Below, piece by piece: positions 3,337 through 56,285 of a stretch of 64,000 nt of DNA. Each line of letters opens with the position of its first letter. Position 1 is the stretch's first letter. Under the pieces are notes generated by a model that searched no databases, was not told the DNA's origin, and saw only the letters and a program-made list of their open reading frames with translations. Made by a program: the position numbers and the translations under genes. This DNA is from Azolla caroliniana (lineage: Eukaryota; Plantae; Polypodiophyta), in assembly GCA_043228905.1 (NCBI GenBank), contig JBHGNT010000011.1, positions 7,440,001 through 7,504,000 on the forward strand, read 5' to 3'.

Positions 3337-3617
3337 TGTTGGACTAAAAGTACTACTCCACCCATTTGTATCCTCTTAGTGTGAACACTCCCTAAGGGAG
3401 TTAGGGCTTTGTTACCCTAAGTATAAATATGGGGGACTAAGTCTTGTAATATAGTTTGGTGGGTTTGATTTGAATCTTGACAGTCTCATTCTTGTGCTCT
3501 AATTGTGTAACTGTCTTTCTCCACCCTTCTTGTATATCTTTGTTGAGATTAAACAATGCACCTTCGATTCTACTTGCCTATATGCTTGCCCATTCCCATT
3601 AACAAGATCCATTAACA
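3337..3617 (+). repeat. Possible short solo-LTR remnant
   Basis: Starts TGTTGG, has TATAAATA, ends TTAACA; no TSD found. Confidence 0.3.
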
Positions 3618-3645
3618 TTCCACATAAGTCGACCCAAGGCACATA

Positions 3646-4096
3646 TGTTATAGGTTTTAGGGTTAGGGTAAAGGATGATAATGATAAAGATGGAAATAGA
3701 GTTAATGATGATGATGATAATGAATGTTGATGGTGATGGAGATGATGAGGATTCTGGGATTGATGGGCGAAGATGTTGATGTGCATTGAGAAGCATTGCG
3801 GGGTGGGGGGTGGTGCCTAGAATGGCTCCACCCCCCTCCCAAGGGGGTTCAATGTAAGGGAAGAGAGAGATAAAGTGAGATAAAGAGAGAGATTGAGAGA
3901 GAAATCTTCATTGTTCATTCATTCCCCATAAGGGGTTAAATAGTTACAAAAGGGTAGATACACAAGGGTGCAAGCCCCCTTGTCCATTTACACTAATCAC
4001 TCACTCACACCTCTTCGTATATGTCAACATGCAAACACACGTGTGCATGTGTTCACATACATATTGACACACACTCACAATTACACTTGTGCACAT
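3646..4096 (-). repeat. Truncated LTR of family X
   Basis: Homologous to 11625-11840 and 23122-23356 (shared GGTGGTGCCTAGAATGGCTCCACCCCCCTCCCAAGGGGG and ATAAGGGGTTAAATAG); fused to Gypsy integrase at about 4097. Confidence 0.7.
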
Positions 4097-7000
4097 TTAT
4101 CCGTTGACCCATTTACCTAGCACCTCGCCGGCAAGTATCCCTAACTGGTAAGACCCATTGAACCCGCGTGTGATCCAGTACGGTCCGGTCCATCTAAACC
4201 GTAGTTTGCCTGGCATTTTACCCATCCGGGTCTGGAACACTAGTACTGGCTTGCCGATTTCAAACATCTTTTCGTTTCCCTTCCGGTGCCGATCTACAAA
4301 CGCTTTCCGTCGCCGTTGTTCCAATTCTAGGTGCATGATGCTCGCCAGTCAGTGTTCTTCTAGTTCACATAGAGCCTTTAACCGAATTGCCTATGATTCC
4401 TATTCATTGAATCGTTCCCGAATCTGAATCCATAAGCTCGGTACCTGGAATTCGACTGGCATGACAGCCTCTAATCCGAATGCTAACCGGAACGGCGTTG
4501 TTTGGATGCTTGTTTTGTACGCTGTCCGGTAAGCCCATCGCTGGTTTCGCCGGAATCTAACCGACTTAAGTAATCTGCTACCGCATGCTGTATGCTGGGT
4601 TGGTGGAATATCTCGAATTCGAATTCCTGTAATAGCAAAGTCCACCGGGCCAACTTACCGGTAAGTGACGCTTTGGACACTAGGTAGAGGAGTGCCGAGT
4701 GATCTACATGGAAGGAAAACTTTCTTCCCAATAAATAGTGCCTGAATTTTGTTACGATGTAGATCATGCCTAAAGCTTCCCTTTCCGTGGTGGAATAATT
4801 TCGTTCGGCTTGGGATAACTTCCGGCTTGCGTAATATACAGGCCGGTACCATCTTGGCTCCGTAAGTTGCATCAACGCACTCCCGATTGCAATGTCGGAT
4901 GCATCCACGAACACATGGAATTCCTTTGCCCAATCCGGGGGTTGCACTACCGGCGCTTGCGACAATAGAACTTTGAGTGCCCGGTATGCCTTGTCTTCGG
5001 TGTCGGTCCACTGGAACGGTGTTCGGTATACCGCAGCATGCAGTGGTGTAGCTAGGTCCGCCAAATACCGGAGCATTCAGCTATGCCAACGGATTTGGCC
5101 TAAGAAACGGCTCAATGCCTTTGCCGTTTTTGGTGCTGGTGCCTCCAGGATTGCTTTTACTTTTTCCGGATCCACGGCGATGCCTTCCTTGCTCACAATG
5201 TGCCCCAGTAGCGTTCCGCTGGACACGCCGGATACGCACTTCGTCGGATTCAGGCTTAGCCGGTAAGCCCTACACTTTTCTAGACATAGTCGGAGGTGCT
5301 GAAGGTGGTCTCCTTCCCGGCTGTAAACGGCGAAGTTGTCGAGGAACACCTGCATGAACGCCGGTATGAATTCTCTGAATATTTCCATGATGATCCTTTG
5401 GAACGTTGCCGACGCCATTTTTAGTCCGAACATCATCACTATGGCAACAAACACTCCCCATTTTGTGACGAAAGCGGTTTTCTCCTGGTCATCGGGGTGC
5501 ATCCGGATCTGGTTGTATCCGCTGAATCCGTCTAAAAAACTGTATACCTCATGGCCGGTGATTGCGTCCAAAACTCCATCCGTAAATGGAAGTGGAAATG
5601 CATCAGTTACCGTCGCCGCATTAAGCTTCCGGTAGTCGACACATACTCTAATTTTGCCGTTTTTCTTTGGTACGACTACTATCGGACTCAACCATGTAGA
5701 TTTCTTTACGGGACGGATAAAGCCAACCCTCAGTAACTTGTCGATTTCCTCCTTGACTTTGGCGGCGTAGTTCGGATTCATCCGGTACCGTCGTTGTGCT
5801 ACCGGTTTGGCGTCTTTGCTCAAATGTATCTGATGTAGATATAGCTGAGGATCGAGCCCTCTCATATTCTCATAGGACCAGGCAAAGACATCCCGAAACT
5901 CTTTGAGAAGTGTAACCATCGCCGTTCTGTCCTCCGTAGTCATTTCCTTGGTTATTTGCACTGGTCTCGCCTCTTCCGTAGTTCCTAGATTTACCTCCTC
6001 TAGTTGGGATGATTTGACCCTTTGTGATACGGCCATTTCTTTCTCCAGGGCTTCTTGTGCTTGCCGTAGCTCTCGGATTGCTTCTTTATTTGGTTCTTCG
6101 TCCGCTCCGTCCGGTGGCAGTATGTATGGTGATACGACTTCAGCTACGTCAATTTCGAACAGGGGTACTATCTTCGGATTATCTCACAAGTATTGATCCA
6201 CCTCTTCATCTGCTAATCCGTCCAACATATTGACACATTCGGCATATAGGGGTGTTAATTCCTTCCCGGTACCCATCCGTGGTTGTGTCGGTACCCGTAC
6301 TTTTGCTTTTCCCCGCCGGAAGGTGATTATATTCTTTCTCCAGTTTTGTTTAATGTGCGCCGTTTTTAGCCACGGCCGCCCCAACAATAGCGGGTAAGCT
6401 CCTTGTGCTTGTAATTGTAGCACTACTATCGAGATGTGAAATGTGTGGCCGCCGATTGTTACTTCCAAATCTCGTATCAAGCCGGTCGGTCGTACTGAGC
6501 TTGTATCCGCCATCCGTAGCCAGAACGGGCATGGTTCCCACTCTTGGATTCCCAAGGTGGTGCATGTCGGAGGCTAATCACATTGACGCCGGATCCTCCA
6601 TCTATTATTGTTTTGGGTAACTCCTTTCCCTTCACGATGGCTGTGATCGTTGGACTGTTTGTGTCTACCACCGTCGGTCCCTCCTCCGGATTTGAGAAGA
6701 ATGTTGGTGCCGGTGGTGTTTCTCCTGCCGTCATGCCTGTCTTGAGTCCTTCTGTGAATCTGGGCACTAGTTGCAGGAGCCGTCCTAATGGCAGAGTGAT
6801 TTGGCACTCCTGCAATGCCTACCATGTCGCATTTTCGGTCTGACTGTCGCTGGCGAGCTCTTCGGTGTTCTCCTTTTGCTGCGCAAGTTCTGCTACATTT
6901 CGCTCATTTGCCTTTTTCACCCATTCCGTTGCCTGCTTCCGAATGGCCTCTTGTGTCTCCCATTCCGTCGTCTTGCCCTTCGACCGTGTGGTAACCTGTT

Positions 7001-8820
7001 GTAAGTCTGCGACTTTGGCGACTACCATGTTTACTGCCGGTCGCTTGTCATAGCTCTTTGCCGGACATTGATTACTATAATGTCCTTCTTGCCGGCAATA
7101 GTAGCAATATGCTTTCCGGGTATTGATGGATTCGGCATTGTTTCCTGTACCCGGTGGAGGACCTGTGGTAACCACGGGGCTTTGGTCCAGTTGGCTACTT
7201 GAGGCGCCTTTTTCCGGTTCACGTGGGTGGCTCCCTTTTTTGAAATGCCGTTTTTTATTAAAGTTCTTTTTGTTGCGGTACCCTTGACGGGGTTGGTCGT
7301 CATATCTCCCGTAATCTTCCCGTCGTTGGTGATACCCGGGGGAGTGATCCCGGTTGTGATTCTCGTACCGTCCATTGTAATCTCGGTACCTGTCATATCT
7401 CTTGTACCGGTCATAGTTGTCTCGCCGATTGTCGTACCGGACATCTTGTGCCGGTCGATATCGCTCCTCTCGCCGCCAACGTTCGTCTTCTTCGTCTCGG
7501 TTGCTACGTGGCTCAATTTGCCGGACTGGTGGAGCTTGCCGATTCAATAAGTTATATTCGCACCGGTTCATCGTGTGGCTCGTAAATTGGCAGAGTAAGC
7601 ATTGCGTCCGCATGGTGCACTCCAGTGACGAGTGTCCGGAATTCAAGCAGGTCGTGCATTGGATTGCTTGCTGGAACCGGAGATCCTCATCGGTTGGTAA
7701 CGCTCGTTGGAGGGCTCCCATTGTTAGCCAAGAGCTCGTTTTCTCCATTTCTCTAACCCGGTCGATGACCTAGTTGACGGTGCTTGTGCGAAAGTCGATG
7801 ACCGTGCATACCGTTCGTAGAGGTTCTCGGAGCGCGGCTAAGAATATAGCCCGTGTTTCTTCCTCCGGAGGTACGCGGGTAAGCTGACTGTGCATCCGTT
7901 GAAATTGGATGATAAACTGCGGAATGCTCTCCCCAGGGTCCTACCGAATGGTATAAAATAGGCCCACGATTTCTCTCTGGTCCACCTCCTTCTGAAAGAA
8001 GTGCAAGAATTTATCTTTCAGGTCCGCAAAAGTGGTGATGGTGCTGGGGTCCTGCGTCAGGTGCCATCTAGCGGCCGGTCCTTCCAATGTCACGCCGAAT
8101 TCGGCTATCTTAGATCATTCCTCTTCTGCCGCGGTTAACCGTTGTGACACATGGTTCCCCTCCCATGTTTGTTGAAACGCGTGAACATGAGCCTCCGCGT
8201 CCAGATCATCCCTATACTTGGAGTACTGGAACGACATGTCGTTGTCCGGTGTCGGTACACGGGCTGGCGGTGTCGGTGGTTTTTCCTGCTGTTCCGTCGG
8301 CGTCGGAGGTCTTTGCCGGTCTTCCTTTGGTGTTGCCGGCTCGACTTCCGGTGTTAGAGGTATTTCTTTGTGTTCTTCCGTCTCCGGAGGTTGCTCCACG
8401 TCTAGTGCCGGAGGTTCCCGGTCTGCCAACTCTGGTTCCAGTGTCGGTAATGTATCCGACTCCTAGTCCTCCGGTTCTCCTAGGGTGTCGTTACTGCTGC
8501 GATAGTTCGTGTGCGCGCTGTAACCCCCTTCCGAATCCGATTCCAGCATTGAAAATGCTTCGGATTCGCCCTCTCTTCTGGCCAAGGCCTGGAGAAGGGA
8601 TTCCGCTTCCCGGAGGCTACTTAAGCTGCTTCCTGTGTCCGGGTAGTCGTTTTGTTGCAGACGGAGCGACTCCTCCGCCACTTTCCGGATCACTTTGGAA
8701 AATGATCGATCCGATCGGATTTCTTCCGCTGCTTGCTAGAAAGCCTCTCGCCGCCTTCACCGTTGAACAAGTCTTCGTGCTCTCTCCGTAACCGGGTCGT
8801 CTGTTGGCCTAGTCATCCAT
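4097..8820 (-). pseudogene. Gypsy gag-pol with stops, frameshifts and an internal deletion of most of the integrase at about 4540
   Basis: ORFs 6819-7748, 6184-6815, 5077-6036, 4483-5076, 4097-4336; RH end (LSRLDSGETSDG) joins directly to INT WAYRT. Confidence 0.9.
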
Positions 8821-8853
8821 TCCCGCCGCTGTTCATTGCGATTGTGCAGGAAT

Positions 8854-8864
8854 TGTGGTCGCCA
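8854..8864 (-). promoter_or_regulatory. Primer binding site TGGCGACCACA (tRNA-Arg-like)
   Basis: TGG-starting motif 7 nt inside the 5' LTR, conserved at 22666-22675; tRNA identity recalled, not searched. Confidence 0.7.
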
Positions 8865-8871
8865 AAAACTG

Positions 8872-9330
8872 TGTTAATCCTAGGGCCGGACAACAGCCTA
8901 ACACAGGGTGTCCACTTAAGACACTTCACCAAAGGGTGTTACGGTAGAATGACTTACGACACAACGCTTAATTAGACCTTAATTGATTACTTAGCAATAC
9001 ATCATTAACACGCATAAGATATACAATAAGCACAAAACGGTAATCAATACTCAAGGATTAAGGCAATAAGTTCTATTAATTATCCGTTGTCGATTACATT
9101 GTCACCGGGCCTTTATATAGGTCTCCGGTGCGAAGTACAAAACGGTGCCAGCCGACACCTTTTCGGGATCGGGCCGGATCTGGATCAACATACCGATTCC
9201 AGTCCGTCCGTCCACATCTTCTCATATATTAATATATATTAAGACTACTAATTACAACAGTTCCCGAATAAACTATTCCTTTCACACTATGGTCTGGACC
9301 TTCTTAAGCCTTCTTGCCGGCCGGGTAACA
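8872..9330 (-). repeat. 5' LTR of Gypsy-1
   Basis: TGTTA...TAACA termini, CCTATATAAAGG TATA on the minus strand, homology to Gypsy-2 LTRs. Confidence 0.88.
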
Positions 9331-9591: not shown

Positions 9592-11624
9592 TGTTGAGTT
9601 GGCAAGCTCAATCGGATCGGAATCGGCTGAATAAGCCAGAGCTAGATCGGTATCCAGAACGGGGAACTGGATAGGTGTCTGGATATATCGGTATCCGGAA
9701 CCTAGAGCCAAATTGGAGAACCGGATCATACTCCCGAATAGTGAGAACCGGTAGGCCGTTGGAGCCTATGGTCTGAACCTAGTATGTAGGCATATTCCTT
9801 GGAGTTAGTGTCAGTCGCTCATATGAGCATTGAAGTACTTGTCAATACTTCTATCAATCCTTTTAAGCACTTGTATAAAAGTGCTCACAGAGCACATTGT
9901 ATGTACAGAGTGTTATTTTTTAATTGAGTTTTTTATTGTTCTGCTCTCTATCTGTCTCATGTGTGTATTTAAGTTTTCCATTAAACCCCCGTTCTGTGTT
10001 CTACTGTTATCCGGGCTAGCCGGTTTTTTCTTAGCTACCGCACATTATCTTTTACATGGTATCTGAGCTCGAGGGTTGAGAATCCTCTACTGCCGATGAG
10101 TGATGCTCATAGACAAACCCTAACACCTAGTAAAGAACAGGAAGGTGAGAATGGACCGAGGAATGGCTAGCTTGCTCCCGACGGAGAAGCTCGATAGATC
10201 CAACTATGCATCTTGGTCATACAAGATGCACCAGTACCTGCTCGGGCATGGTTACTGGAGTTATGTCGATAGAGCCAACGATACAACACTTGATGCGGCA
10301 CATAGGGACTTCCCGGCTTGGGAACAAGTGGCAAGCAGGGTAATGTATTGCATCGCATCTAGTGTCGGTGATCAGTTGCTCAACCATATACGGGAGGCAA
10401 GACGCCAAAGAAAGCTTGGGGAAACCTGAAGAAAGTCTTCGCCGCAAGCACCATGGCCCAGAAGCTGCAACTCCGACAAGGGTTGAGCAATGTCCTGACA
10501 AAAAGGACATGTGGGTGGCCGACTACACGACCCCGATCAAAGACATAATATGTGACTCACTTGCCTCCATTAACATGACCGTCGAGGAAGATGAGATGGT
10601 GCAGGTCTGTCTTGGGGGCCTAGTATCGAAGTTCAAAGCATTCTCGACTACGGTTTGTACAAGGGAGAATACGCCCTCGATTTTCGACTTACAGTGGATG
10701 CTCCTTGTAGAGGAGAACCACGCGGGTGTGTCAAAAAGCATGCACACTGACAACAAGATGATGTACACGGAGGTGGATTGGCCCCATGGTCGTGGTGGAC
10801 GAGGCGGATTGGCACGTGGTGGAAGTGGCCGACAAGAGCAAAATCGAAGGCACAAGGATGGTGTCGACAATTGTTCCGGAGCAGGGGGAGTCAAAGCAGC
10901 ATCGGTAACCGGCAAGAGAAGACCGCAATGGAATGTTGGTATTGTGGCCGAAAGGGCCACAAAGAGAGCGAGTGCTGGAAAAAGTGCTTCGATTCGGACA
11001 AATCCGGATCTGGCAAGGCAGGACGGGGAAGTTAGCAAAGCTTGTAGTATGTGGAAGGACCAGAAGGATCCGGTTCCGGAGATGGATTGGGCCCAAACTT
11101 TGTGATGAAAGACAAGGCCAATTCGATGAAGACAAGCACCTCGAAACCGAATGAGGTATGGTGCGTTGATTCCAGAGCGTCAAAGCACATGACAATCCAC
11201 GAGGAGTGGTTTGCTTATCTAGAAAAACCGGAACAACCGGGGGTGGTCGAAACCGGGGACGGCACCCCGCATACCATCAAGCACATCGGTGAGGTTCCAC
11301 TCAACCATGTTGGGCAAAAAGGAAAGTTGATGAACGTCCTGCACATCCCGACAATCACGAAGAATATCGTGTCAATCGGACAGATTGTGGATCAAGGGAT
11401 GTAGGTTCGGTTCACACACCTCGGGTGTTTCATCGAAGAAGAGGACAAAGTCATCATGCAAGGGCGCCGCGATGGGAGGATATTTATCCTTGAAACAAAT
11501 GATGTCGGCAATGGCTATGTTTGCGAAAGGGCAGAACGTCGAGTCGAACATCAACCTGTGGCATAAGCGGATCGGCCACATCAACTTCCAGAAGCTTCAC
11601 ATGCTACAGTGGAAACACGTGGTT
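9592..11624 (+). mobile_element. Copia A1, 5' part (LTR 9592-10056, PBS 10057-10068, degenerate gag-PR), interrupted at 11624
   Basis: TG..CA LTR, TGGTATCTGAGC, LPTEKLDRSNYASW gag, CWYCGRKGH, LWHKRIGH; same family as 32741-38374. Confidence 0.88.
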
Positions 11625-11840
11625 TGTTGTACGTTTTAGGGTTAGGGTTAATGGTAATGATGGTTATCGATGAAGAAGATAGACATGATGTAATAGTGAA
11701 GCTGATGGAGAGTAGGATGGTGAGAGAGATCATGAAAATGTTGACAAGCTTTGAGAAGCATTGTTGGGTGGGGGGTGGTGCCTAGAATGGCTCCACCCCC
11801 CTCCCAAGGGGGTTCAATGTTAAGGAGAGGGAAGAGAGAT
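11625..11840 (-). repeat. Family X LTR, left half (split by LINE and Gypsy-2)
   Basis: Starts TGTTGTA exactly where the Copia ORF breaks; homologous to 3646-3870. Confidence 0.75.
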
Positions 11841-13420
11841 AGATAGATAGATAGATTATATTATCGTCTTCGGAGGTCAAATATGACCTATGAGACCAAA
11901 AATATTACATTTCACGTGATACGTGTGAAAGTGAGTAGTGACTCTCGATGTTCAAGAACTTTACCAATGAATGTTGCAATCGAGAGTGTACATTGTGGTT
12001 GTGAGAAATTCATGCAAAGATTGGGCTCGATCGAAGAGATGTGGAAAGCATGGTCGAATATGATCAAAGGCAGAGCATTGTATCAAAGTGTGATACTTAG
12101 ACTCACGAACTTGTTTAGGGCAAAGTGTGCATAGCCGACCACTCTCATCACTTGTACCCCAACGCCCTGTTTCACATCGCAATGCATGTGAGCTAAGTTG
12201 CATGGAAGCAATAGTTCGAATGGCAAATAACGGTATGGGCTCTAACATGTATGGATGTGTACGATTTCCCCGTTCCGCAAAGAATATGGTTTTGTAGTTA
12301 GGTGCAACATGTGTAGTATAATGTGTGAACCGTGAGCCTCCACATTTCTCCCATGTCATGATTCATTGGCATTGCAAAAATGCCTCATTTACAGAGGAAT
12401 GTAATGATGCATCATGAAACAAGTGTCTCGCATCCCATCTACCAAACCATTTTTCTATATCTTGCATCCAACCGGAACACAAAATTTTGCTTTTATGTGT
12501 CTTTTGGATCTTTTTTCTTGCTTCCCACGCAATTCTAGGAAGTCGATGTGAGGTACTTTTTTGAACGTTAAGCATGTATTCAACAACCCTTTCCATGGCC
12601 ATGATCTCAATGGGAAGCGATCCCGTCTCAAGGAGGAGGAGGTTGTAGGGCGTTTGTTTCTTAACTTGTAGAAACTTGGTAAGAAAATGCTTTTGGACAT
12701 TTTCAAACTCTTTCCACATAGACTTAGGGATACCACCCCATACTTCCACCCCATAAAGAAGAACCGGTGTCACCAAAGTGTCGAAAAGATATTTCTTGAG
12801 GACCCAACACTTAATATCTCCAAGATTGCATGTGTTCTCAAATGCATAGTATGCTCACTTGCCTGCCTCTAAGCGGCGTGTAGCACATTCATTCCATCTA
12901 TGATTTGAAGGAACTTCAAGGCCAAGATATTTGAAGCTTTCCACACATTCAAGTGGCTCATTGTTGTACATAAAGCATGGTTTATCTCTTTTTTGGCTCT
13001 TCACAAGCATAATCTTTGTTTTAGAGCTATTGACACTTAATTTAGTATGCATGCAAATTTTTTCCAATGCCTTCATAAGCTTTTGTGCATCTCCTAAAGT
13101 ATTTGCAAAAAGCACTACATCATCTGCATATAGCAAAAGCATAATCACAACATTCCCAATGGCAACTTCTTCAACACATTCTTCCTTTGCAAACTTGGTA
13201 ACCATTTCTTCTAATTCATCAATGCATAGACCAAATAGTGTTGGTGAGAGTGGGCATCCTTGCTTAACACCAATAGTGCTTTTGAAAAAATCTAAAAGTT
13301 TATCTCTCATGCGCACACAACATATAACCTTCTCATAAATTCGGGAAATTGCAAGCATATATTCACTTGGCACCTCAAGTTCTTCCATTCGCCTCCAAAG
13401 ATGCTCACGAGGTACCATAT
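11837..13420 (-). mobile_element. 5'-truncated LINE (RTE/L2-like RT plus C-terminal Cys/His domain) with (TCTA)n tail
   Basis: GVKQGCPLSP, LLYADD, FKYLG, CTLC...H...C; AGAT repeats at 11837-11856. Confidence 0.9.
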
Positions 13421-13854
13421 TGTTAACTCTTCGGGCCGGACAATGGCCTAACACAGGGTGTCTATGGGAGACACTTCACCAAAGGGTGTTACGGCAACCG
13501 GATTAGACTTCAACGCTTAATCCGACTTAGTTAAGTTACTTATTAGGATTGTCTTTCATAACACGCGTAAGATATAACAATTAAGACAGAACGACAATTA
13601 ACACAGAGAGATAACAACGCTTAAGCTTTCATTAATTAACCGCTCACTATTACATTGTATCCGGGCCTTTAAATAGGTTTCCGGTCTGTATTACAAAACG
13701 GTGCCATCTGCACCTGTTCGGGATCGGTCCGGATCCGGAACGGCATACCGTTTCCTGTCAGTCCGTCCACACTCATAGCTTAATTACAACCACATTCCTA
13801 CTACTTAATTAGCTCTCCGTTTCCCACTCTGGACTCCTTTGCCGGCCGGTAATA
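13421..13854 (-). repeat. 3' LTR of Gypsy-2
   Basis: Direct repeat of 22683-23116. Confidence 0.95.
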
Positions 13855-13856
13855 CA

Positions 13857-13873
13857 TGGCACGCCCGTGGGAC
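13857..13873 (-). promoter_or_regulatory. tRNA-3'-end-like sequence (GTCCCACGGGCGTGCCA) occupying the PPT position
   Basis: Ends in CCA 2 nt before the 3' LTR; no purine tract present; near-identical motif at 23357-23372. Confidence 0.65.
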
Positions 13874-13908
13874 AGTACCTTGTACGTCGAATCCACAACT
13901 GACCCTTG

Positions 13909-16629
13909 CTATTCTTCGTCCAAAATGTCCAGAATGCTTTGTTCGAGAGGCTCCAATGGTTCATCTGGAAGTGGTTGTTGTTGTTGTTGCTGTTGCTGCT
14001 CTGTTGCTGCTCTACTGCGGCGGGTCCATTGGTGGTTGCTGCGGTTGCTCCTCCGTTTATGGCTCTGACACCGGCGTCTCCGTTGTTGCTCCCTACGTCG
14101 TAGTGGTCTCCGGTTGACTGGTTCTCGGCAGGCCCTCAGCCGGTGACGGTTCCTCATCACTAAGGTTAACCGTTGTCGCTTCCCGTACCCGGGACCGCTC
14201 GTAGCTTTCAAACTGGATTTGAGCGTCCAACCTATCATCGTCCACCTGAGCTACGAACTGCCTGACCTGCGCCAGCTGTTCATCTGCCAGGACTTGGAAG
14301 TCGTCGGCCAGCTCGTCCCGTATGGCGGTGAAGTCCTCGGAAGTCAACGTATAACAGTCATCTCCTTCCTTCCGCCGGTTTGCCACATCCGCCCGTAGCA
14401 ACTGGAGTTCCGCCGCGTTTTGTGCCCACTTTGTCCACCATTTTACGGAGCTTTCATCAATCAAGTGTTTCGTCTGATTCAGCCATGCCCGGAGGATGGA
14501 CTGAATCCGGCTCGTTCCCAATTGCGATTTGGTTTCCGCCGCATGCCGTTCCTCGTTCAGTTGTTTGATGATTTTGACGTTGTCCTCCGCCTGCGCCTTG
14601 TAATGCGTCAATTGCCTTTGATATGTACTTTGTAATTTCTGCAATACTGTTGACGCTCTCTCTTTGTCTTCCGGCTGCTGCCTCTGGAGCTCCATCCGGA
14701 CCTTCTCCGCCTTTTCCAAGCGTCTTGTATTTTCCGCCCGTTCGTCGGCGATCGCCGTCGTGGCCCGATCAACTGCTTGCTGGAGCTTGGCCATCCGTTC
14801 TTTATGCTCAGTTTCCAGCCGTTTGTAGTCCCGGGGTAGGTGCTCAAAATCATCCGTCTTTTGCTTGAGTCATGCGTTGATCTGACGACGGGCCCGGTCC
14901 TCGCGGTCCTTCTGCTGGCGGAGCTCTTCCTTTAGTCGTTCAATCTTTGTTTCCGCCGTTTTCCGCAGCTTGTCCTTTTCCTACAACACTTTGTCTTTCT
15001 CCTCCTTTAGCAGGTCGTACGCTTGATGGCCTTTCCGGAGGCTCTCCTCTGCCCGGCGAAGGTTCTCAGCAGTCTTCTTTAATTCGGCTTCGGCCGCCGT
15101 CTTCAATTCTCGTTCACGGCTCCTTAGCGCTTCTTGTGCGGCAAGTTCCTCTCTCTATTCCGCAAGCTCCCGAGCTTGCGCCGCATCTCTTGCCGGAACG
15201 GTTTCCGTTGCCGGGGTCTTATTGCTATATACAGGTCGTTCCGTTTCTTTATTCTGTACACTTACCGGAATCACCGGTGATTGGATCCGTATTTTGGCCA
15301 TCTCTGTCGTGACCTGATCCAAATCTTTTTCAAGGCACCGGATTCTGGACCGGGCCATCTCTAGTTGTTCGGTTGTGACGAGCAACCGTTCGCTTTGCGC
15401 TCTTTCTTCCGCCTCTATATACCCCACTGCTCCGGCTATCTGTTCGCCTATCCACCGGAGCCACAGGCTACCGGTGCCTTGTTGTGCTTGCACGGAGGTT
15501 TGATAGATGGGCTCACTTGTAGAGGGGTGGTCCCGCCTGGTCGCGCCGAGTTGCAGTTCCGTTTCTGCCCGTGGACCATCCTGCTGTCCTGGTTCCCCTT
15601 GCGCTTCTTCTTGGCTGACCGAGGGAGGCTGCAGTGACCTTTCCGGCTCTGGCGGGATGGGGCTTGCCGGTGTTGCTAGTGGTGCCGGGGCTTCTGTTTC
15701 CGGTGCCATCTGCACTGGTTCCGGTTCCTTCCTTGGCGTGGGAGTCTCAGTATGGGGAGCCGGTGTTCCCTCCGTCTGAGGGTCCGAACGTTTCCCGGTT
15801 GTCTCAACGGTCCTTGCCGACGACCGTCGCTGGAGGTGCTCCGTAGGCTCCTCCTCTATTTCCTCCTCCTGAGCTCCGGCATTGAGTTTTGCCGCCAAGG
15901 GGTCCACTTCTCGATTCACCGGTCGGCGGAGTGTGACCTTTACGGGCCGTGCCAGTGGTTCCTCCTGCGCCTCCGTTGGGCGCTTCCGGCTTCCGCTTCT
16001 TGTTGCCGCCTGTTCTGCATCCATCGCCTTTCCCTTACTGGCCTTAGAAGCCAACAACTGTTGCCGTTTGGAAGCCGTCCTTGGGGTGCCGTCCGACACT
16101 CTTCCTCGCTTCTTGGGCTGGACGGTCTGAACGGGTGGCACCAGCAAGGTGAGCCACTGCGTTACGGCGTGCCATATCCTTCGTCCGTCTCGGCCTTCTT
16201 TGCCGTCTTTGCCTCTGACGATCTCAATGGCCGCACACAACCCGTCTGCAATCAATACCGGCCAATCCACCTTGATCCCTTCATAGGTGGCAATGATCAT
16301 CCCTGCCCGGTTCTGCGGCAAGACAGGGGGTCTAGGGTACACGTGGCCGTATTCATGGAGCACACGAGCAATTTCGCGGAACAACATATCTCCGCCGCCC
16401 TGTGTCCGGTAGCCCTTGCTGGCTAGAGAGTACTCACCAAAATACCTGATGAGTTGCTCCGGGGTTGGATTGTCGATCGTGAGTATGCCTCCCTCCGGGG
16501 TCCATCTCTGTGTCGGGGTCGGATTGCGGTGGCGAGGATGGATGGTGATGAGAGTGGGGTTGAGAAAGAGAGAGTTAAGAAGGCGGGGGTTCTCTGTGCG
16601 CAGGTTCTCGTCTGATGATCTTGTAGCAT
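13909..16629 (-). pseudogene. Extra 3' ORF region of Gypsy-2 (N-terminal domain, Pro/Glu linker, long coiled coil), fragmented
   Basis: ORFs 15155-16387, 14093-14794 and 13909-14238 lie between INT and the 3' LTR, in sense orientation. Confidence 0.7.
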
Positions 16630-16767
16630 TTCGGTGCTTCTGTGCTCCTGGGTTCGCGAAAGTAGAGGGTCTCTACGCGCAATGGTTTTTGTTTGTGCAT
16701 TCTGGCGCCTTTTTCAAGTTTGTGCATGTCGCGTACTTAAAATAGCATTATGTCCTGTGGTGGCGCT

Positions 16768-19700
16768 TTAAATGCCCACTACGTACCTTTTCGCTCCACG
16801 CTCTTTCCTCCATTCATTCCTCGCTTTTGCATGATTGTTTTTTTTTTTTTCAGTTATTATTATTCTTAGTGTGACGTCACATGGCCGTTGGTCCTCCCGG
16901 ACCCTTACGGCCTCATTCTCTCCGGTTCCCGACTTGCCGTCTCTGCCGTCTTGGTGGTTGCCGTCGGTCCTTTGCTCAAATGGGTTCTTAGGCATCGGTC
17001 CTCTATATGCCTTTAACCGGAATCCGTTGACCCATTTGCCCAACACTTCGCCAGCAAGTGTCCCCAACTGGTAAGACCCATTATACTCCCGTGTTAGCCA
17101 ATATGGTCCGGTCCATCTAAACCTTAGTTTAACCGGCATCTTGCCCATCCGGGTTTGGAATACTAACACTGGTTTGCCGATTGCGAACATTTTTTCGTTA
17201 CCTTTCCTGTGCCGGTCGACGAATGCTTTCCATCGCCGTTGCTCCAATTCTAAATGTAGGATGCTGGCCAACCGTTGTTCCTCCAGCTCACACAACGCTG
17301 TCAACCTTATTGTCTCCGACTCCTTCTCGTTCAGCCGTTCTCGTAGCTGGATCCGTAAGCTAGGTACTTGAAATTCTACCGGCATGACCGCCTCGAGTCC
17401 GAACGCCAACTGGAACAGTGTTGTTCGGATGCTCATTTTGTATGTCGTCCGGTATGCCCAAAGCGCGCTATGTAGCTTTGTGTCCCAATCCGTCCGGTTC
17501 TCGTTGACGATCTTCCGAAGGATGTTCTGGAGCGTCTTGTTTGTTGATTCCGCTAATCCGTTCGCCTGTGGATAGTAAGGTGTGCTTCGTTTGTGGACCA
17601 CGGCATAGAAGGTCGTTAGGCTTTCCACTACTTGTCCGAGAAAGTGCCCCCCTTGGTCACTTATCAATTCAATGGGGCATCCATAATGGCACCAGATGTA
17701 CTCATATAGGAACTTTGCCATTGACGCAACGGTGTTATCCCGTAAAGCTTCGTGCAGTAATCCGTAGCGACGATAACGTACCGATTACCCGTTCTCATTG
17801 CCGGTGGCTTGAACGGTTCTACAAAGTCCAGCCCCCACTTTTGGAATGGCTCGAGTGGTAGTACCGGCTGGTGTGGCATACGAGCCTGCTCCGTTGGCTG
17901 GCCCATTCTCTGGCATAGGTCACATTCTTTTGCGTACCGTACCGCATCTCTTAATGTCGTTGGCCACCATAGGCCACTTTGCCATATTTTTCTGGCCGTC
18001 GCATCTCCGGCATAGTGACCTCCGGCAACTCCGCAGTGGGCTTCTCTCAGTATCAGTTCCTTTTCATCGCTGTGCACCGCCCGTCTCCATATGCCGTCAG
18101 CGCCCTTGTGGTACAGTGTGTCTTGCAGTAAGCAGAAATGTCGGCTTTGTACCGCCAGGCGTTTCCGTTCGTCCCGGTTCAGCTCTTCTGGAGGCAGTCC
18201 TGTGCTCAGAAACTGGTGCATATTTGTGAGCCACTTGTCTTCCTGGGCCATTGTCTCATCTGCTGCCGTCTCCATAGTGACTCGAAACAGCTCCGCATCC
18301 GGAAACTCATCCACTACTCCGTCACCCGTCTCTCCGGACTCCAATCGGCTTAAGTAATCCGCTACGACATGCTGTATACCGGGTCGGTGGAATATTTCAA
18401 ACTCGAACTCCTGTAACAATAAGGTCCACCGGGCCAATTTGCTGGTGAGTGACGCCTTGGACACCAGGTAAAGGAGTGTCGAATGATCTACATGGAAGGA
18501 AAACTTCCTTCCCGATAAATAGTGCCGAAACTTTGTCACACTGTAGATCATTCCTAGAGCTTCCCGTTCCGTAGTAGAGTAGTTCCGTTCTGCTTGGGAT
18601 AGCTTCCGGCTAGCATAGTACACTGGCCGGTACCACTTTGGTTCCATAAGCTGCATCAGTACGCTTCCGATTGCGATGTCGGAGGCGTCCACGAACACGT
18701 GAAATTCTTTACTCCAATCTGGAGGTTGTACTACCAGTGCCTGCGACAATAGTACCTTGAGGGCCTTATACGTCCTATCCTCAGTATCGGTCCACTGGAA
18801 TGGTGTCCGATGTACGGCGGCATGCAACGGTGTAGCCAGGTCGGGCAAGTATCGGAGCATCTGGCTGTGCCACCGGATCTGGCCTAAGAACCGGCTTAAT
18901 GCCTTTGCCGTTGCCGGCGCCGGTGCTTCTAATATGGCTTTCACTTTGTCCGGGTCGACTACAATACCTTCCTGGCTCACGATATGTCCTAATAAAGTTC
19001 CAATGGACACGCCAAATACACACTTTGCCGGATTCAAGCTTAGCCAGTACGCTCTACACTTTTCTAGATAAAGACGGAGGTGCTGAAAATGGTCCTCCTC
19101 CCGGCTATAGACGGCGAAATCGTCAAGGAAAACCTGCATAAAAGCCGGTATATATTCACCAAAGATTTCCATGATGATTCGTTGAAACGTTGCCGGTGCC
19201 GTTTTGAGTCCGAACATCATCACCACGGCCACAAACCCCATTCGGTGACGAATGCCGTTTTCTCTTGGTCATCGGGGTGCATCCGGATCTGATTATACCT
19301 GCTGAATCCGTCTAGGAAGCTATAGACCTCGTGGCCGGCGACGGCATCCAACACTCCATCTATGAACGGAAGTGGAAACGCATCCGTTACCGTAGCCGCA
19401 TTGAGTTTCCGGTAGTCCACGCAAACTCGAATTTTTCCGTTCTTCTTCGGTACGACTACGATCGGGCTCAGCCATGTCGCTTTCTTTACCGAACGGATAA
19501 AGCCAACTCTTAGCAGTTTGTCGATTTCTTCCTTGACCTTGGCAGCATAATTGGGATTCATCCGGTACCGTCTTTGTGCCACTGGTTTTGCGTCCTTGCT
19601 CAAGTGCACTTGATGCTGGTATAACTGAGGGTCGAGTCCTCGCATGTCTTCGTATGACCAGGCGAATACGTCGCGAAATTCCGTGAGAAGTGTTATCATC

Positions 19701-22629
19701 GCCGTTTTGTCTCCGGACTTAATCTCCTTGGCGATGTGCACCGGTTTTGCTTTGTCCGTGGTGCCTAAATTCACCTCTTCCAGTTGCGATGCTTTTACGC
19801 GCTGTGAAACGGCCATTTCCCGTTCCAACGCTTCCTGCGCTTGCCGTAACTCCCGGATTGCGTCTTTATCCGATTCTGCTTCCGCCTCTTCCGGTTGCGG
19901 TAAGTACGGTGCTATGGCTTCGGCAATGTCAATTTCGAAGAGGGGTATGATCTTCGGGTTTTCCTGCAGGTATTGAGCTTCTTCTTCGTCCGCTAACCCT
20001 TCGAGCATGTTGATGCATTCCGCATACCCGGTGTACATTCCTTGCCAGTGCTCGTTCTTGGCTGTGTTGGTACCCGTACCTTGGCTTTTCCTCGCCGGAA
20101 GGTAATTATATTTTTTCGCCAATTCTGTTTGATATGTGCCATTTTCAACCATGGCCGCCCCAGCAATAGCGGGTATGCGCCTTGTGCCTGTAATTGTAGC
20201 ACTACGGCCGAGATGTGAAATGTTTTCCCGCCAACGGTGACTTCTAATTTCCGTATGAATCCTGTCGGCCGCACTGAGCTTGTATTGGCCATCCGCAACT
20301 AGAATGGACATGGCTCCCACTCGTGGATTCCTAGGTCGTCACACGTTCGGAGGCTTATTACATTTACCCCAGAGCCTCCGTCTATAACTGTGCCGGGGAG
20401 TTCTTTCCCTTTTACAATGGCAGTGATTACCGGACTGTTGGTGTCTACCACTGTTGGTCCCTCCTCCGGATTCGAGAAGAGTACTGGTGCTGGTGATGGT
20501 TCTCCTGCCGTCATGGCCGTCTTCAGTCCTTCCGTGAATCTAGGCACGAGTTGTAGGAGTCTTCCTAGTGGTAACGTAATCTGGCATTCTTGCAACGCCT
20601 GCCATGTCTCGTTCTCGGAGTGACTACCGCCGGCAAGCCCTGCGGTGTTCTCCTTTTGCTGCTGTAAGTCTGTGACATTCTGCTTGTTTGCTTTCTTTAC
20701 CCATTCCGTTGCTTGTTTGCAGATGGTCTCCTGTGTCTCCCATTCTTTGGCCATGCCCTTCGACCTTGTGGTCACCTGCTGCAGGTCTGCCACCTCAGGG
20801 ACTACCATATTTACCGCCGGTCGTTTTTCATAGCTCTTCACCGGGCATTGGTTACTATAATGGCCTTCCTGTCGGCAGTAGTAGCAGTAGGCTTTCCGGG
20901 CATTGCTAGATTCGGCATTGTCTGTTGTACCTGGGGCCGGTCCTACGGTACGCGCGGGGTTTTGTACCGGTTGGTTACTTGGAGCGCCTTGTTCCGGATC
21001 CCGGGGGTAGCCGCCTTTTTTAAAATGCCGTTTTTTGTTAAAGCTCTTCTTATTATGGTACTCTTGACGGGGTTGCCCATTATATCTGCCGTATTCCTCC
21101 CGTTGCTGACGATACCCGGGGGAGTGCTCCCGGTCGTATTGTTCGTATCGTTTATTGTAATCCTGGTACCGATCTTGCTGGTCATAGTTATCTCGCCGAT
21201 CACCGTACCGGACATCATTTTCCCGTCGCTCGCCATACCGAACATCCTGTGCCGGTCGGTCACGGTCCATTCGCCGCCAACGTTCGTCTTCTTCATCCCG
21301 GTTGCTGCGTGGCTCAATTTGTCGGACGGGCGGTGCTTGCCGAGTCAACAGATTATACTTGCACCTGTCCGTCGTATGGCTCTTGGATTGACAGATTACA
21401 CATTGCGTCCTCATAGTGCATTCTAGAGCCGAGTGTCCGGAATTCAAGCAGGTTGTGCACTGTATTATTTGCCGAAACTGGAGGTCTTCATCGGACGGTA
21501 ACGCCCGTTGAAGTGCGCCCAGTGTGAGCCAGGAGCTTGTCTTTTCCATCTCTTTCACCCGGTCAATGACCTGGTCGATGGTACTTGTGCGGAAATCGAT
21601 TACCGTGCAAACCGTGCGTAGGGGTTCCCGGAGCGCGTTTAGGAATATCGTCCGTAATTCCTCCTCCGGGGGTGCACCGGCAAGCTGACTATGCATCCGT
21701 TGAAACCGGATGACAAATTGGGGAATGCTCTCCCCTGCCTCTTGCCGGATGGTATAAAATAAGCCTACCATTACGGTCTGGTCCACCTCCTTTTGAAAAA
21801 AATGCATGAATTTAGCTTTTAAATCTGCAAAGGTGTTGATGGTAGACGGGTCCTGCGTCCGACGCCATCTTGCTGCCGGTCCCTCCAATGTGACGCCAAA
21901 CTCTGCTATCTTAGAGCGTTCTTCTTCCTCCGGTGTCAGTCGCTGGGACACATGGTTGGCTTCCCATGTCTGTTCAAAGGCGTGCACATGAGCTTCCGCG
22001 TCCGGATCATCTCTATACTTGGAGTACTGGAACGGCATGTCGTCGTTCCGTATCGGTGCGCGCGCTGGTAGTGTTGGTGCCCGTTCCGGAATTTTCTCCG
22101 GTGTCGGTGGTCTTTCCCGATTTGATTCCGGTGTTGGTTGTTTCTCTTCCTTTGGTGACGGAGGCCTCTCCTCTTCGACTTCCGGTGTCGGAGGTCGTTC
22201 TTCTTCTGCTGGTTCCGGGGGTTCCAGTGTTAGCACTTCCGGTTCCGGTTCTGGTGTCGGTAAGGTATCCGATCCTTCGTTCTCCGGTCCGCCCGGGGTT
22301 TCGTTACTGCTACGGTAGTTCGTGTGCACGTTGTATTCCCCTTCGGAGTCCGATTCATATGCTGAAAAGGCCTCTGCTTCGCCTTCTCCGTTTGCCAACG
22401 CGTGGAGAAGGGATTCGGTTTCCCGGAGGCTGCTTAGGCTGCTGCCATCGTCCGGGTGCGATGTTTGCTGTAACCAAAGGGAGTCCTCCGCTACTCTCCG
22501 GATTACGTTGGAAAACGAGCGATCCGCTCTAATTTCCTGCGCCGCTTGCTGGAAAGCCTCGCGTCTCCTTTGCCTTTCGGCAAGGTGTCGAGTTCGATCT
22601 GTAACCAGGTCGTGCATTGATCTAGACAT
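16768..22629 (-). pseudogene. Gypsy-2 gag-pol with a few stops and frameshifts
   Basis: ORFs 20299-22716 (gag, CCHC knuckles, VIDGGSG), 19220-20320, 17664-19241 (FLDDF, VDASD, zinc finger), 16768-17721 (SDQG, NGLAE, GPY). Confidence 0.93.
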
Positions 22630-22665
22630 CCATCCGTGCCGTCGTTCGCTGCAAAAACAGGAATC

Positions 22666-22675
22666 GTGGTCGCCA
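22666..22675 (-). promoter_or_regulatory. Primer binding site TGGCGACCAC
   Basis: Just inside the 5' LTR; shared with Gypsy-1. Confidence 0.7.
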
Positions 22676-22682
22676 AAAACTG

Positions 22683-23116
22683 TGTTAACTCTTCGGGCCG
22701 GACAATGGCCTAACACAGGGTGTCCACGGGAGACACTTCACCAAAGGGTGTTACGGCAACCGGATTAGACTTCAACGCTTAATCCGACTTAGTTAAGTTA
22801 CTTATTAGGATCGTCTTTCATAACACGCGTAAGATATAACAATTAAGACAGAACGGCAATTAACACAGAGAGATAACAACGCTTAAGCTTTCATTAATTA
22901 ACCGCTCACTATTACATTGTATCCGAGCCTTTAAATAGGTTTCCGGTCTGTATTACAAAACGGTGCCATCCGCACCTGTTCGGGATTGGTCCGGATCCGG
23001 AACTGCATACCGTCTCCTGTCCGTCCGTCCACACTCATAGCTTAATTACAACCACATTCCTACTACTTAATTAGCTCTCCGTTTCCCACTCTGGACTCCT
23101 TTGCCGGCCGGTAACA
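22683..23116 (-). repeat. 5' LTR of Gypsy-2
   Basis: TGTTA...TAACA, direct repeat of 13421-13854. Confidence 0.95.
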
Positions 23117-23121
23117 CATAT

Positions 23122-23388
23122 CATTCATTCCTCATAAGGGGTTAAATAGGTACAAAGGGTTAGATACACAAGGGTGCAAGCCCCTTGGGCATTCACACCT
23201 AACCACTCACTCACACCTCTTTGTATCCACCACACTCACACTTACATTCACACTCATAATCGTATAACATTACACATACATATCAACACATTACATCTTT
23301 CACCCTCACTTATCACAGTTATCAATCACTCGTACATCTCATACGGTAACACAATATGGCACGCCCGTGGGAGAGTGCCTTGCACGTT
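23122..23388 (-). repeat. Family X LTR, right half (to about 23356), plus about 32 bp of adjacent internal sequence with the tRNA-like site
   Basis: Homologous to 3915-4090; followed by TGGCACGCCCGTGGGAGAGTGCCTTGCACGT. Confidence 0.72.
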
Positions 23389-23523
23389 AAACAAGTCCAA
23401 TATTCAGTCATCTTCATTCGAAAACATCTCCACAAGGCGCATCATTAAACGTTGGGGCTTTTGGTAGGGATTCACAAACCCGTGCTCAGTCGTGGTCACA
23501 TGTCGAAGCTTCCATGTCACGGC
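23389..23523 (-). pseudogene. C-terminal piece of DNA methyltransferase gene (motif X to start of motif I)
   Basis: Translates VTWKLRHVTTTEHGFVNPYQKPQRLMMRLVEMFSNEDD*ILDLF, in frame with 29035-29187 once the Copia and one TSD are removed. Confidence 0.8.
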
Positions 23524-44600: not shown

Positions 44601-46550
44601 ATATTATCTTCATGGAGGACAAGACGCTCGCCGACTGGGAGTCGGAGAAGAAGATAATGAACTCCGAGTCGACCGGTAAGGATAGACTCTACGATGAGCA
44701 GACCCAACCGGCAAGAGACCGGTTAGCACTCGAGGAACTAGCCGGTTACGGTGAGGATACCGAACCGGCAGAAGAAGAAGTAGAGGAAGCTGAGACCGGA
44801 ACCGGTCAAGACCCCGAATCGGATTCGGATGAAGAGCAAATGGAGGAGCCGGTTACCGAAGCCCGAAGACGTAGATATCCTCTCAGAGAGAGAAGGGCGC
44901 CCCGGAGATTTCCGGATGCAGAGCATGTTCTGCTGACCGATGAGGGGGAGCCGGAAAGCTTCAAAGAAGCGAAGGAAGACACCCACAACCGAAAATGGTG
45001 AAGTGCCATGCAGGATGAGATGGATTCCCTGTATGAGAACCATACATACGAATTGGTGGAGCTGCCGAAAGGAAAGCGGGCACTCCGAAACAAGTGGGTG
45101 TACAAGTTGAAACCGGGATATGCCGGCAACCCCCCGAGATACAAAGCCAGGATCGTGGTGAAGGGGTTCCAGTAGACGAAGGGCGTGGACTTCGACGAGA
45201 TATTTGCCCCGGTAGTAAAGATGACCTCCATCCGGACGGTGCTGAGTATAACAGTAAGCATGGACCTCGAGGTAGAGCAGCTGGACGTGAAGACGACATT
45301 CCTTCACGGCGACCTCAAAGAGAAGATCTACATGGAGCAACCGGAAGGATTCGTGGAGAAAGGGAAGGAGCACCTGGTATGCCGGTTGAAGAAGAGCCTG
45401 TACGGACTAAAGCAGGCTCCCCGACAATGGTACCGGAAGTTCGACTCCTTCATGACCGATCAAGGGTACCACAAGACGCAGGCCGATCACTGCGTGTTTG
45501 TGAAGAAGTTCGAAGGAGGGGACTTCCTGATACTCCTCCTGTACGTGGATGACATGTTGATCATCGGACGGGACCAAGTCAAAATACGGATGCTGAAGAA
45601 GGCTCTCAACCGGACCTTCTCAATGAAAGACTTGGGTCCGGCAAGACAGATGTTGGGGATGCACATCATTCGGGACCGGTCAGTGAAGCAATTATGGTTG
45701 TCACAGGAGAAGTATGTGACAAAGGTGCTTCACCGGTTCAACATGTCAGAAGCGAAACCGGTCGGATCGACACTTCCGGCGAACTGTAGGCTATCCGGCA
45801 AGCAAAGCCCGAAGACGAAAGCAGAAAAGGCGGATATAATGAAGATTCCATATGCCTCTGCCGTCGGGAGCTTGATGTACGCAATGGTGTGTACCTGACC
45901 GGATATAGGATACGCAGTCGGAGTGGTGAGCCGGTTCATGAGTAATCCCGGCAAGGAGCACTGGAACGCGGTCAAATGGATACTCCGGTATTTGAAGGGC
46001 ACTTCAAATATGTGTCTCCGATTCGGCTCCAGAAAACCTCAACTGGACGGTTTCACCGATTCGGACATGTCGGCTGATGTGGATACCAGCCGGTCTACAT
46101 CCGGGTATGTAATGACATATGCAGGGGGAGCTGTTTCGTGGCAATCGAGGCTGCAGAAGACGGTTGCATTGTCAACCACGGAGGCGGAGTACATGGCGGC
46201 TGTGGAAGCCGGCAAGGAAATTTTATGGATGAAGGACTTCATCGGAGAGCTCGGTATACGGCAAGAGGAATACCGACTCTATTGCGACAGTCAAAGTGCC
46301 ATCCACCTTGCTAAAAATGCGGCCTACCATTCCCGGACGAAGCATATCCAGCGGAGGTATAACTGGATCCGGGAAAGAGTAGATGACCAGGAGTTCACAC
46401 TGACGAAGATCCACACGGCCGAGAACGGGTCAGATATGCTGACCAAAGTGCTGACACCCGACAAGCTGGATGCATGCCGGAAGAGAATCGGACTGGTAAG
46501 ACACCCCATGTCGGAGTGAAGGGGGAGTTTGTTGGGAGACAGGTCCCTCC
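41696..46550 (+). mobile_element. Copia B, degenerate; 5' LTR 41696-42427, 3' LTR starts 46530 and is interrupted after 21 bp
   Basis: PBS 42430-42441, gag-pol 42458-46519 with stops, PPT GAAGGGGGAG; LTR resumes at 63125-63152. Confidence 0.93.
42458..46519 (+). pseudogene. Copia B gag-pol, multiple stops and frameshifts
   Basis: ORFs 42317-42832, 42836-43336, 43458-43988, 43972-44334, 44303-45001, 45185-45898, 45923-46519. Confidence 0.92.
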
Positions 46551-52500: not shown

Positions 52501-53040
52501 TCATATGTGTATAAATATGACTTAGGGCAAACAGTTTTGTTGTTGCTACTTATTTTTCTGTTTTTCCACTCAAGAGGAGTGAAGGGAGAGAGAGCAGCCG
52601 TGAGAGAGATAGAGCGTGAGAAAGGAAGAGGTCGACGCCTCTGTGTAATCCTGCCGCCTGTGGCGAGGACAACGAGCTCAAGGTCGTCGCCTTGCAGCTC
52701 GCCGTTGTACATTTCTCTGTGCATAGTTTTGGTTTGGAGTCTTGTACTCCCGTGGTTTTTTCCCGTACAAGGTTTTCCACGTTAAATCGTGTGTCCACTC
52801 TATTTTTCGCATTTCCCCTTTTTTCTGCAACAACGATTCGTGCGTTCCCTTGGTTGTGGCCGAGAGGTGAAGTTTGGAAAGTGTGATTAATTTCCATCAA
52901 TTTGGTATCAGAGCGAGTTGCTGCAGAAAATGGAAGGCGGCGGCAGCGGGCAGCCGAGGATGATGGTGTTGAATGCGCAGAATTACGCCGACTGGAAGAT
53001 CAAGATGGAGGATCTTCTGATTGTTCGGGACCTGTACGAA
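46337..53040 (+). repeat. Tandem array, 7 x 957 bp (B pol end + PPT + 21 bp B LTR + 607-bp C LTR + PBS + C gag start)
   Basis: ORF track repeats every 957 bp; C LTRs start at 46551, 47508, 48465, 49422, 50379, 51336, 52293; junction microhomology ACGAA. Confidence 0.97.
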
Positions 53041-56000: not shown

Positions 56001-56157
56001 AGGAGACTTTCTAATACTCCTCCTGTACGTGGACGACATGTTGATCGTCGGACGGGACCAGGTCAAGATACGGATGCTGAAGAAGGCTCTGTTGGGATTT
56101 CGGTCCCTCCGGATGGGATGTCCGGAGATGAATGACGGCAAGCCCGGTTGCGGTTAC

Positions 56158-56285
56158 GGAGCCGGATGATGAAGACCCCGGCTACGGAGCCGGATGATGA
56201 AGACCCCGGTTACGGAGCCGGATGATGAAGACCCCGGCTACGGAGCCGGATGATGAAGACCCCGGTTACGGAGCCGGATGATGAA
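56158..56285 (+). repeat. 28-bp tandem repeat in the D LTR U3 (4+ copies; also in the 3' LTR)
   Basis: GGAGCCGGATGATGAAGACCCCGG(C/T)TAC. Confidence 0.9.

Follow-up and report, generated by a model that had tools for sequence, protein, structure and literature searches.

A clade of plant Ty3/gypsy elements that we could not place in a known lineage has probably given up the PPT, and both of its DNA strands are probably primed by host arginine tRNAs. The plus strand uses a purpose-built second tRNA site, composed of a 17-bp anchor, a bulge, a hairpin looped out at position 58 and a 12-bp T-arm clasp, which is kept in non-coding partner families too. We regard it as a real feature and as a variant of Ty3/gypsy replication that appears, from genomic sequence, well supported by footprints. 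The idea of priming by two tRNAs had been raised in the initial annotation of this DNA; the footprints, which consist of true tRNA sequence at LTR starts, support it, and from them we infer the mechanism.

Structure of the element

The element of interest lies on the minus strand of the window (the whole stretch of 64,000 nucleotides of Azolla caroliniana DNA that was analysed) and is about 9.7 kb long. Its parts are the following:

23117..23121, minus strand: TSD ATATG, 5' copy
22683..23116, minus strand: 5' LTR, 434 nt, TGTTA...TAACA
22676..22682, minus strand: spacer of 7 nt between LTR and PBS, CAGTTTT
22663..22675, minus strand: PBS TGGCGACCACGAT, complementary to 12-13 nt of tRNA-Arg(UCG), the minus-strand primer
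20302..22737, minus strand: gag (Retrotrans_gag, CCHC knuckle) running into protease, stop-to-stop frame
16771..20338, minus strand: pol in three frames, with RT, RNase H and integrase
14096..16672, minus strand: two extra ORFs in sense downstream of pol, of 505 and 258 aa
13421..13854, minus strand: 3' LTR, 434 nt
13416..13420, minus strand: TSD ATATG, 3' copy

The element had been described as complete, with both LTRs and a TSD, and it is so: both LTRs measure 434 nt, with 97.5% identity (11 differences), and ATATG stands at both ends. The 3' LTR of the window copy starts with TA instead of TG; most sequencing-run contigs aligned to this LTR have the TG form at 13853. The PBS, also claimed at the outset to be a normal one for tRNA-Arg(UCG), starts 7 nt past the 5' LTR and pairs with the host tRNA over 12-13 nt; this tRNA was located with a loosened sequence pattern, and tRNA read-through copies at LTR ends are a further basis for the assignment. 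Each family has a long spacer of its own, 4-11 nt, separating LTR and PBS (22676-22682 in the window; L093 and L099 elsewhere), and since these spacers are missing at integrated 3' LTR ends, the integrase appears to trim long overhangs.

A second member of the lineage, about 78% identical, occupies 4099-9233 on the minus strand with the same PBS at 8855-8864, and no exact 3' site was found for it within the window. Non-coding partner LTRs (3600-4020 and 11560-11860 in the window; L009, L018 and L022) end in telomere-like AACCCTA repeats just before CA. Elsewhere in the window, 46300-63000 on the plus strand is a tandem array of seven 957-nt units, 99-100% identical, each with a copia-type PBS, upstream of copia ORFs.

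A tRNA-like site at the position of the PPT

Ahead of the 3' LTR the sense strand reads TTGTGGATTCGA-CGTACAAGGTACT-GTCCCACGGGCGTGCCA-TG-LTR, and minus-strand positions 13873-13855 within it are GTCCCACGGGCGTGCCA-TG. The site is 42 nt long (17 nt, a 13-nt hairpin and 12 nt of T-arm), followed by the spacer:

13887..13898, minus strand: 12 nt matching the T-arm side of tRNA-Arg(UCU) up to A58, with one G-T pair
13874..13886, minus strand: 13-nt hairpin that interrupts the tRNA match exactly between positions 58 and 59
13857..13873, minus strand: 17 nt that reproduce in sense the last 18 nt of tRNA-Arg(UCU), CCA included, less one C, at the position of a PPT
13855..13856, minus strand: 2-nt spacer TG between CCA and LTR
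23352..23390, minus strand: another instance of the site, hairpin included and with a TATTG spacer, ahead of the LTR start of a non-coding family

The last of these belongs to the non-coding family inside whose LTR the studied element is inserted.

The 17 nt had been recognised from the letters alone as the 3' end of tRNA-Arg(UCU), CCA included and one base short, and this agrees with the host genes, which end GTCCCACCGGGCGTG and do not encode CCA (ARAGORN, 5 of the 13 loci found by pattern). Both motifs, as a check suggested in the initial annotation, were thus matched to host tRNAs, Arg(UCG) and Arg(UCU). The match to the latter extends upstream past the hairpin (13898-13887), beyond the part noticed at first. 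The reported 2-nt spacing from CCA to the LTR is also correct; this TG spacer is not present at integrated 5' LTR ends. When 45 distinct tRNA 3' parts from 14 isoacceptors are compared for pairing with the minus-strand site, with RNA energies as a proxy, the best predicted duplex is formed by Arg(UCU), at -51.3, against -38.6 for the best other isoacceptor in this tRNA set, which is incomplete because an Rfam tRNA search scored only 63 of 58,716 candidates. ARAGORN finds no tRNA gene in the window, and folding of the isolated 51-nt site gives no single informative structure.

The absence of a purine tract before the 3' LTR holds as well: the longest purine run within the 45 nt ahead of it is 4. 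Two copia elements in the same window carry, in contrast, GGGGGAG purine tracts.

Conservation of the site and its hairpin

Exact matches to the 15-nt core of the site number 2,143 in the genome of 523 Mb, and 0 for the reversed-pattern control. Within the first 30 loci, all 31 distinct sites have an LTR start 2-5 nt downstream, and clustering at 80% over 200 nt divides 38 motif-adjacent LTR starts into 21 groups. In 20 longer regions, gag-pol or the extra ORFs, where present, lie upstream of the site in sense, and non-coding families also bear it. Copies were moreover chosen through the integrase and not through the site, by taking every third of 119 matches, which gave 40 copies; 33 of them were informative, their retrieved sequence including an LTR start. 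The copies are closely related, with integrases 84-95% identical. The site is present in every one of the 33, counting two that were anchored 5 nt off, and its core shows 0-1 change; a PPT is present in none, so that the suggested look at other copies of the family found no normal PPT. The site is also present in six related metagenome contigs found through pol, three of which have a G-to-A change and one of which is cut by the contig end. LTR pairs in the clade are up to 99.7% identical.

The hairpin covaries. Across 20 distinct sequences four of its seven pairs change on both sides, 90.7% of cells pair as compared with 24-39% in slid controls, and the covariation score of 0.352 is reached in 0 of 500 shuffles, a test which the relatedness of the sequences inflates. 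A 3-bp extension of the hairpin competes with tRNA pairing and covaries at the tRNA's expense in 2 of the 20 sequences. In runs that bear the labels of three organisms, the summed depth of Logan contigs is highest over 13840-13899, and loose contig ends occur at 13897 in three of four runs, in a type of data that cannot show cDNA ends. Two other elements (L359 and L360), ending ...TCTCAACA, are apparently inserted in the loop of the conserved hairpin.

Copies of true tRNA at LTR starts

The tRNA genes have no CCA and the element lacks one C, so a string with CCA and the extra C marks cDNA of the mature tRNA. This string occurs at 30 exact places in the genome, and at 82 places with CpG-type variants beside TGTT; all 30 exact places and 46 of the 82 variant places were inspected by sequence, and the remainder were judged by their spacers alone. 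The 46 Arg(UCU) junction rows comprise 27 at reverse-read LTR ends, 6 at LTR starts and 13 assigned to neither. The 27 read as ordinary minus-strand primer copies in families whose PBS is of the Arg(UCU) type. LTR-start junctions total nine places (the six rows, L100 and two more) at six loci:

Locus A, C2:12742725: a non-coding element whose 5' LTR is preceded by about 50 nt of tRNA, with T in place of A58
Locus B, C16:17527334 and 17527822: three tandem 5' LTRs, element TSD AATAG
Locus C, C20:881298: 18 nt that fit a second isodecoder (or carry one CpG change), upstream of a 5' LTR with PBS and gag-pol after it
Locus D, C11:1420824: 18 nt, one of them mismatched, preceding a solo LTR
Locus E, C2:12.00-12.02 Mb: three copies, 57 nt of tRNA, chimeric
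Locus F, C3:8094146: chimeric, 18 nt, TSD CTTCA

In the last 18 nt these junctions differ from a host isodecoder by 0-1 mismatch, and at loci B, C, D and F the tRNA sequence breaks off after exactly these 18 nt, at position 58. Left-end junctions keep the exact family spacer after CCA. At loci A, B and C the tRNA precedes the 5' LTR, and the element's own 3' site retains the element form and not that of the tRNA; at locus B this site differs from the tRNA at three places, and the joints read right-end spacer, T, 18 nt of tRNA and left-end spacer. Loci A and E require a primer of at least 50-57 nt of tRNA. A TSD is present in 4 of 5 letters at locus C; locus A has an assembly gap in its 3' LTR, and locus D is a solo LTR start. 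Left-end primer remnants, the object of another proposed check, are accordingly found fixed in the genome with the tRNA's own sequence and not the element's version of it.

Three candidates (L092, L361 and C16:10614964) were rejected as LTR-start junctions: they have AG or TG spacers, yet they are attached to reverse-read LTR ends, and for this reason spacer letters alone do not tell the side of the LTR. C4:4077090 (18 nt, TG and an LTR we could not assign) was left out of the LTR-start count. The tRNA-Phe piece at C3:8094146, tried as a template jump, is actually the insertion target, since the chimeric element of C3:8087100-8094800 sits inside a tRNA-Phe gene with TSD CTTCA.

Other arrangements were met in the same search. 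At C21:4842471 (L101), outside the LTR-start count, a right LTR end and spacer are followed by 18 nt of tRNA-Arg(UCU) and then directly by gag, which may reflect mispriming by the tRNA at an internal site. At C16:10390391 (L422) a nearly full-length tRNA-Arg(UCU) copy with CCA is fused to the LTR of a family with an AAAG spacer and looks like a tRNA retrocopy made by read-through. L081, L082, L091 and C16:16199580 join motif-type internal DNA to an exact 18-nt tRNA copy and a reverse-read LTR end; they are probably inverted chimeras, formed when the tRNA copy on plus-strand strong-stop DNA annealed to the sense site of a different RNA. Tandem tRNA gene arrays (Lys/Asn, Ile-UAU and Arg-UCU) were also seen at L044, L051, L061 and L062, and the Arg-UCU arrays contain acceptor-stem variants that recur as primer copies.

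Controls

Arg(UCG), the minus-strand primer, has copies at 148 places in the genome; none of the 30 inspected is at an LTR start, 27 being assigned to LTR ends, one to an LTR end by its letters, and two being chance matches. As a positive control, the PBS-side tRNA copies also stop at 18 nt and show A58 misread as T; that m1A causes arrest and misreading has been described (PMC4787781). Two findings count against our reading. The AA/GA acceptor-stem variants are at an LTR start in none of 21 places (16 at an LTR end, 5 assigned to neither). One of 61 element-form sites (L013) precedes an LTR and then a PBS; the DNA upstream of it is another repeat, and the arrangement is probably an insertion.

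Junctions of a comparable kind are known from HIV: if the primer is not removed, remnants of the PPT or the tRNA stay in the 2-LTR junctions, and one rA of the tRNA remains on the right end (PMC5618025, PMC3185654). Locus B resembles an HIV 2-LTR junction that holds a primer remnant, with a tRNA replacing the PPT (PMC5618025).

Proposed mechanism and alternative explanations

We consider it very likely that host tRNA-Arg(UCU) anneals to the site on the minus-strand cDNA and primes the plus strand. In this scheme the minus strand would be primed by tRNA-Arg(UCG), or by Arg(UCU) in some families, and the genomic RNA would be cleared by RNase H. The tRNA, or its 3' fragment, would then pair via 17 bp with one bulged C, and 12 further bp would form once the 13-nt hairpin loops out. 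RT would extend from CCA across the spacer of 2-5 nt into U3; normally the primer would be removed, and the integrase would cut after the CA of the LTR. A primer that is not removed would be copied by the minus strand to m1A58 (18 nt) or beyond, giving the junctions. Shielding of the hybrid from RNase H, or positioning of RT, are candidate roles for bulge and hairpin. The genomic junctions have the footprint that would be expected of an unremoved tRNA plus-strand primer. The simplest account of an exact tRNA sequence that ends at the modified base and is joined to the family spacer would be a tRNA linked covalently to the plus-strand start and copied when the minus strand is completed. The rare junctions show that tRNA priming happens, not that the tRNA is the main route, and loci E and F fit template switching equally well.

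The usual plus-strand primer could instead be the element's own RNA, surviving RNase H as a tRNA-like fragment ending in CCA, with the real tRNA as an occasional primer or switch template. The compensatory changes that keep the hairpin (four of seven pairs, score 0.352, 0 of 500 shuffles) speak for such a fragment, as does L013 with the element form before an LTR and a PBS after it, and switching between tRNA copies and the site is visible in the chimeric loci E and F and in L081, L082, L091 and C16:16199580. This explanation, however, leaves 29 nt of tRNA identity across unrelated LTR families unexplained; moreover, a switch during minus-strand synthesis leaves the tRNA ahead of the 3' LTR, whereas at A, B and C it stands ahead of the 5' LTR and the 3' sites are unchanged. 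A switch from genomic RNA to free tRNA accounts for E and F; A, B and C need a further step. Against it, too, a search for either form joined to a right-end spacer gave nine matches: four places in exact tRNA form, four in element form that are not right-end joins, and one PBS-side copy. We consider an own-RNA primer improbable.

Still less probable is that tRNA-Arg(UCU) primes plus-sense DNA on an antisense transcript from the 3' LTR instead of on minus-strand cDNA. The opposite strand does read LTR, spacer and a PBS-like site, and the same tRNA-LTR-start junctions are expected, but an extra particle-packaged transcript is demanded, and by the standard scheme (PMC5371799) copying would end at the transcript's 5' end and a further transfer would be needed to reach the copy of the PBS. 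The least credit goes to the idea that the site helps to recruit tRNA, to dimerise the RNA or to package it, in the manner of the 3' part of Ty3's bipartite PBS, and that the plus strand starts elsewhere. Ty3 does have a 3' tRNA-binding segment (PMC5371799), and a purine-rich stretch exists at 13921-13903; the site on the genomic RNA is, however, identical and not complementary to the tRNA, which therefore cannot pair there, and the stretch at 13921-13903 is about 50 nt from the LTR, has a longest pure run of 6 and reads as the last codons of an ORF. The exact family spacer kept after CCA at left-end junctions also stands against a start elsewhere. Priming by tRNA-Arg(UCU) on the minus-strand cDNA is the explanation that we prefer.

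Classification

The Pfam order RVT_1, RT_RNaseH, Integrase_H2C2 is that of Ty3/gypsy; the acidic motifs D-E-D-D of RNase H are present in pol, which in the window copy is interrupted by frameshifts. Paired LTRs have TG...CA ends and a TSD, and 5-bp TSDs are also found in L133, L145 and L146 and in the elements on C16 and C3. The two extra ORFs (505 and 258 aa) have no Pfam match and recur at the equivalent place in other families of the clade. For the first, weak Atlas leads point to the Transposase_32 and ATHILA ORF families (0.82-0.83, all below 0.9, a lead only); the second resembles coiled-coil. No chromodomain was detected, there being no Pfam family on the integrase C-terminal frame and no chromodomain in the seven nearest full-length relatives. 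Nor is there a second RNase H: a single RNase H (184-288) is followed by the integrase zinc finger at 399, and PF13456 is absent from the nearest relatives.

The best protein relatives are 51-89% identical; identity is 36-46% to liverwort elements and, over full coverage, as high as about 39% to angiosperm ones. In an RT-RNase H tree of 49 rows, built without REXdb reference sequences and after L273, L136 and L151 were dropped because their segments are short, the 11 rows with the motif group in a single clade (100/100), distinct from those of the angiosperm and liverwort elements, and chromodomain-bearing rows are separate from it. In the same tree without REXdb references, the motif clade is also separate from the clade of angiosperm elements with L275 and L279, the latter two presumably Athila-like by their PBS motif. 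The trait was scored within the 11-row clade; the 3' ends of the outgroups (L241, L258, L275, L276, L279, L281-L284) are not anchorable on a 3' LTR start.

We compared these features with those of the lineages in Neumann et al. 2019 (PMC6317226, Additional file 5). The Tat elements (TatI-III, Ogre, Retand) have an additional archaeal-type RNase H, which the studied element does not, although TatIII and Ogre share with it a tRNA-Arg PBS. Athila has a PBS for tRNA-Asp, Asn or Ala, whereas that of the studied lineage is for Arg(UCG) or Arg(UCU). Phygy, with a 4-bp NCGN TSD and a tRNA-Trp PBS, and Selgy, with a 4-bp TSD, a tRNA-Ala PBS and a length of about 5 kb, both differ from the 5-bp TSD and Arg PBS found here, and Selgy also from the 9.7 kb. 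The 5-bp TSD and the length of about 9.7 kb are shared with OTA elements, and the absence of a chromodomain and the 3' extra ORFs with plant non-chromovirus lineages. By this lineage table (PMC6317226) the element fails the defining features of Tat, Athila, Phygy and Selgy; REXdb may hold members of the clade.

Relation to known systems

The element shares with yeast Ty3 and retroviruses the LTRs, the order gag-PR-RT-RH-INT, the minus-strand tRNA PBS, an RNA primer beside the 3' LTR and the RNase H motifs (PMC5371799, PMC3185654). It differs in that their plus-strand primer is an RNase H-resistant piece of the genome, which a review of Ty3 gives as the PPT (PMC5371799), whereas here it is apparently a host tRNA acting in trans, with no PPT. 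The bipartite PBS of Ty3 is complementary to the tRNA and serves the minus strand (PMC5371799), and differs in this from the studied site. Because the source gives a PPT for "most" elements, its lack marks a variant of Ty3/gypsy and not an exclusion from it. Half-tRNA priming (copia, Ty5) and self-priming (Tf1, Tcn1, TAR) also depart from the standard primer scheme, but for the first strand; self-priming elements of fission yeast keep the PPT (10.1101/2022.12.06.519325), and in the parts of PMC6317226 that concern priming, alternative primers are described for the minus strand only. The literature searched, whose coverage leaves out most subscription journals, yielded no account of a plus strand primed by a tRNA, in line with the initial annotation, which knew of no described case.

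PPT priming of the second strand is regarded as a step common to retroviruses and LTR retrotransposons. If our reading is true, more than 2,000 sites in one genome would mark a successful clade in which both strands depend on host tRNA pools, and the PPT step would be replaceable by a host tRNA. This raises the questions of how the tRNA-DNA hybrid escapes RNase H long enough for priming and how the integrase handles overhangs of 2-11 nt. Such elements may be missed, or given the wrong orientation, by annotation tools that screen for a PPT or interpret the site as a PBS in reverse.
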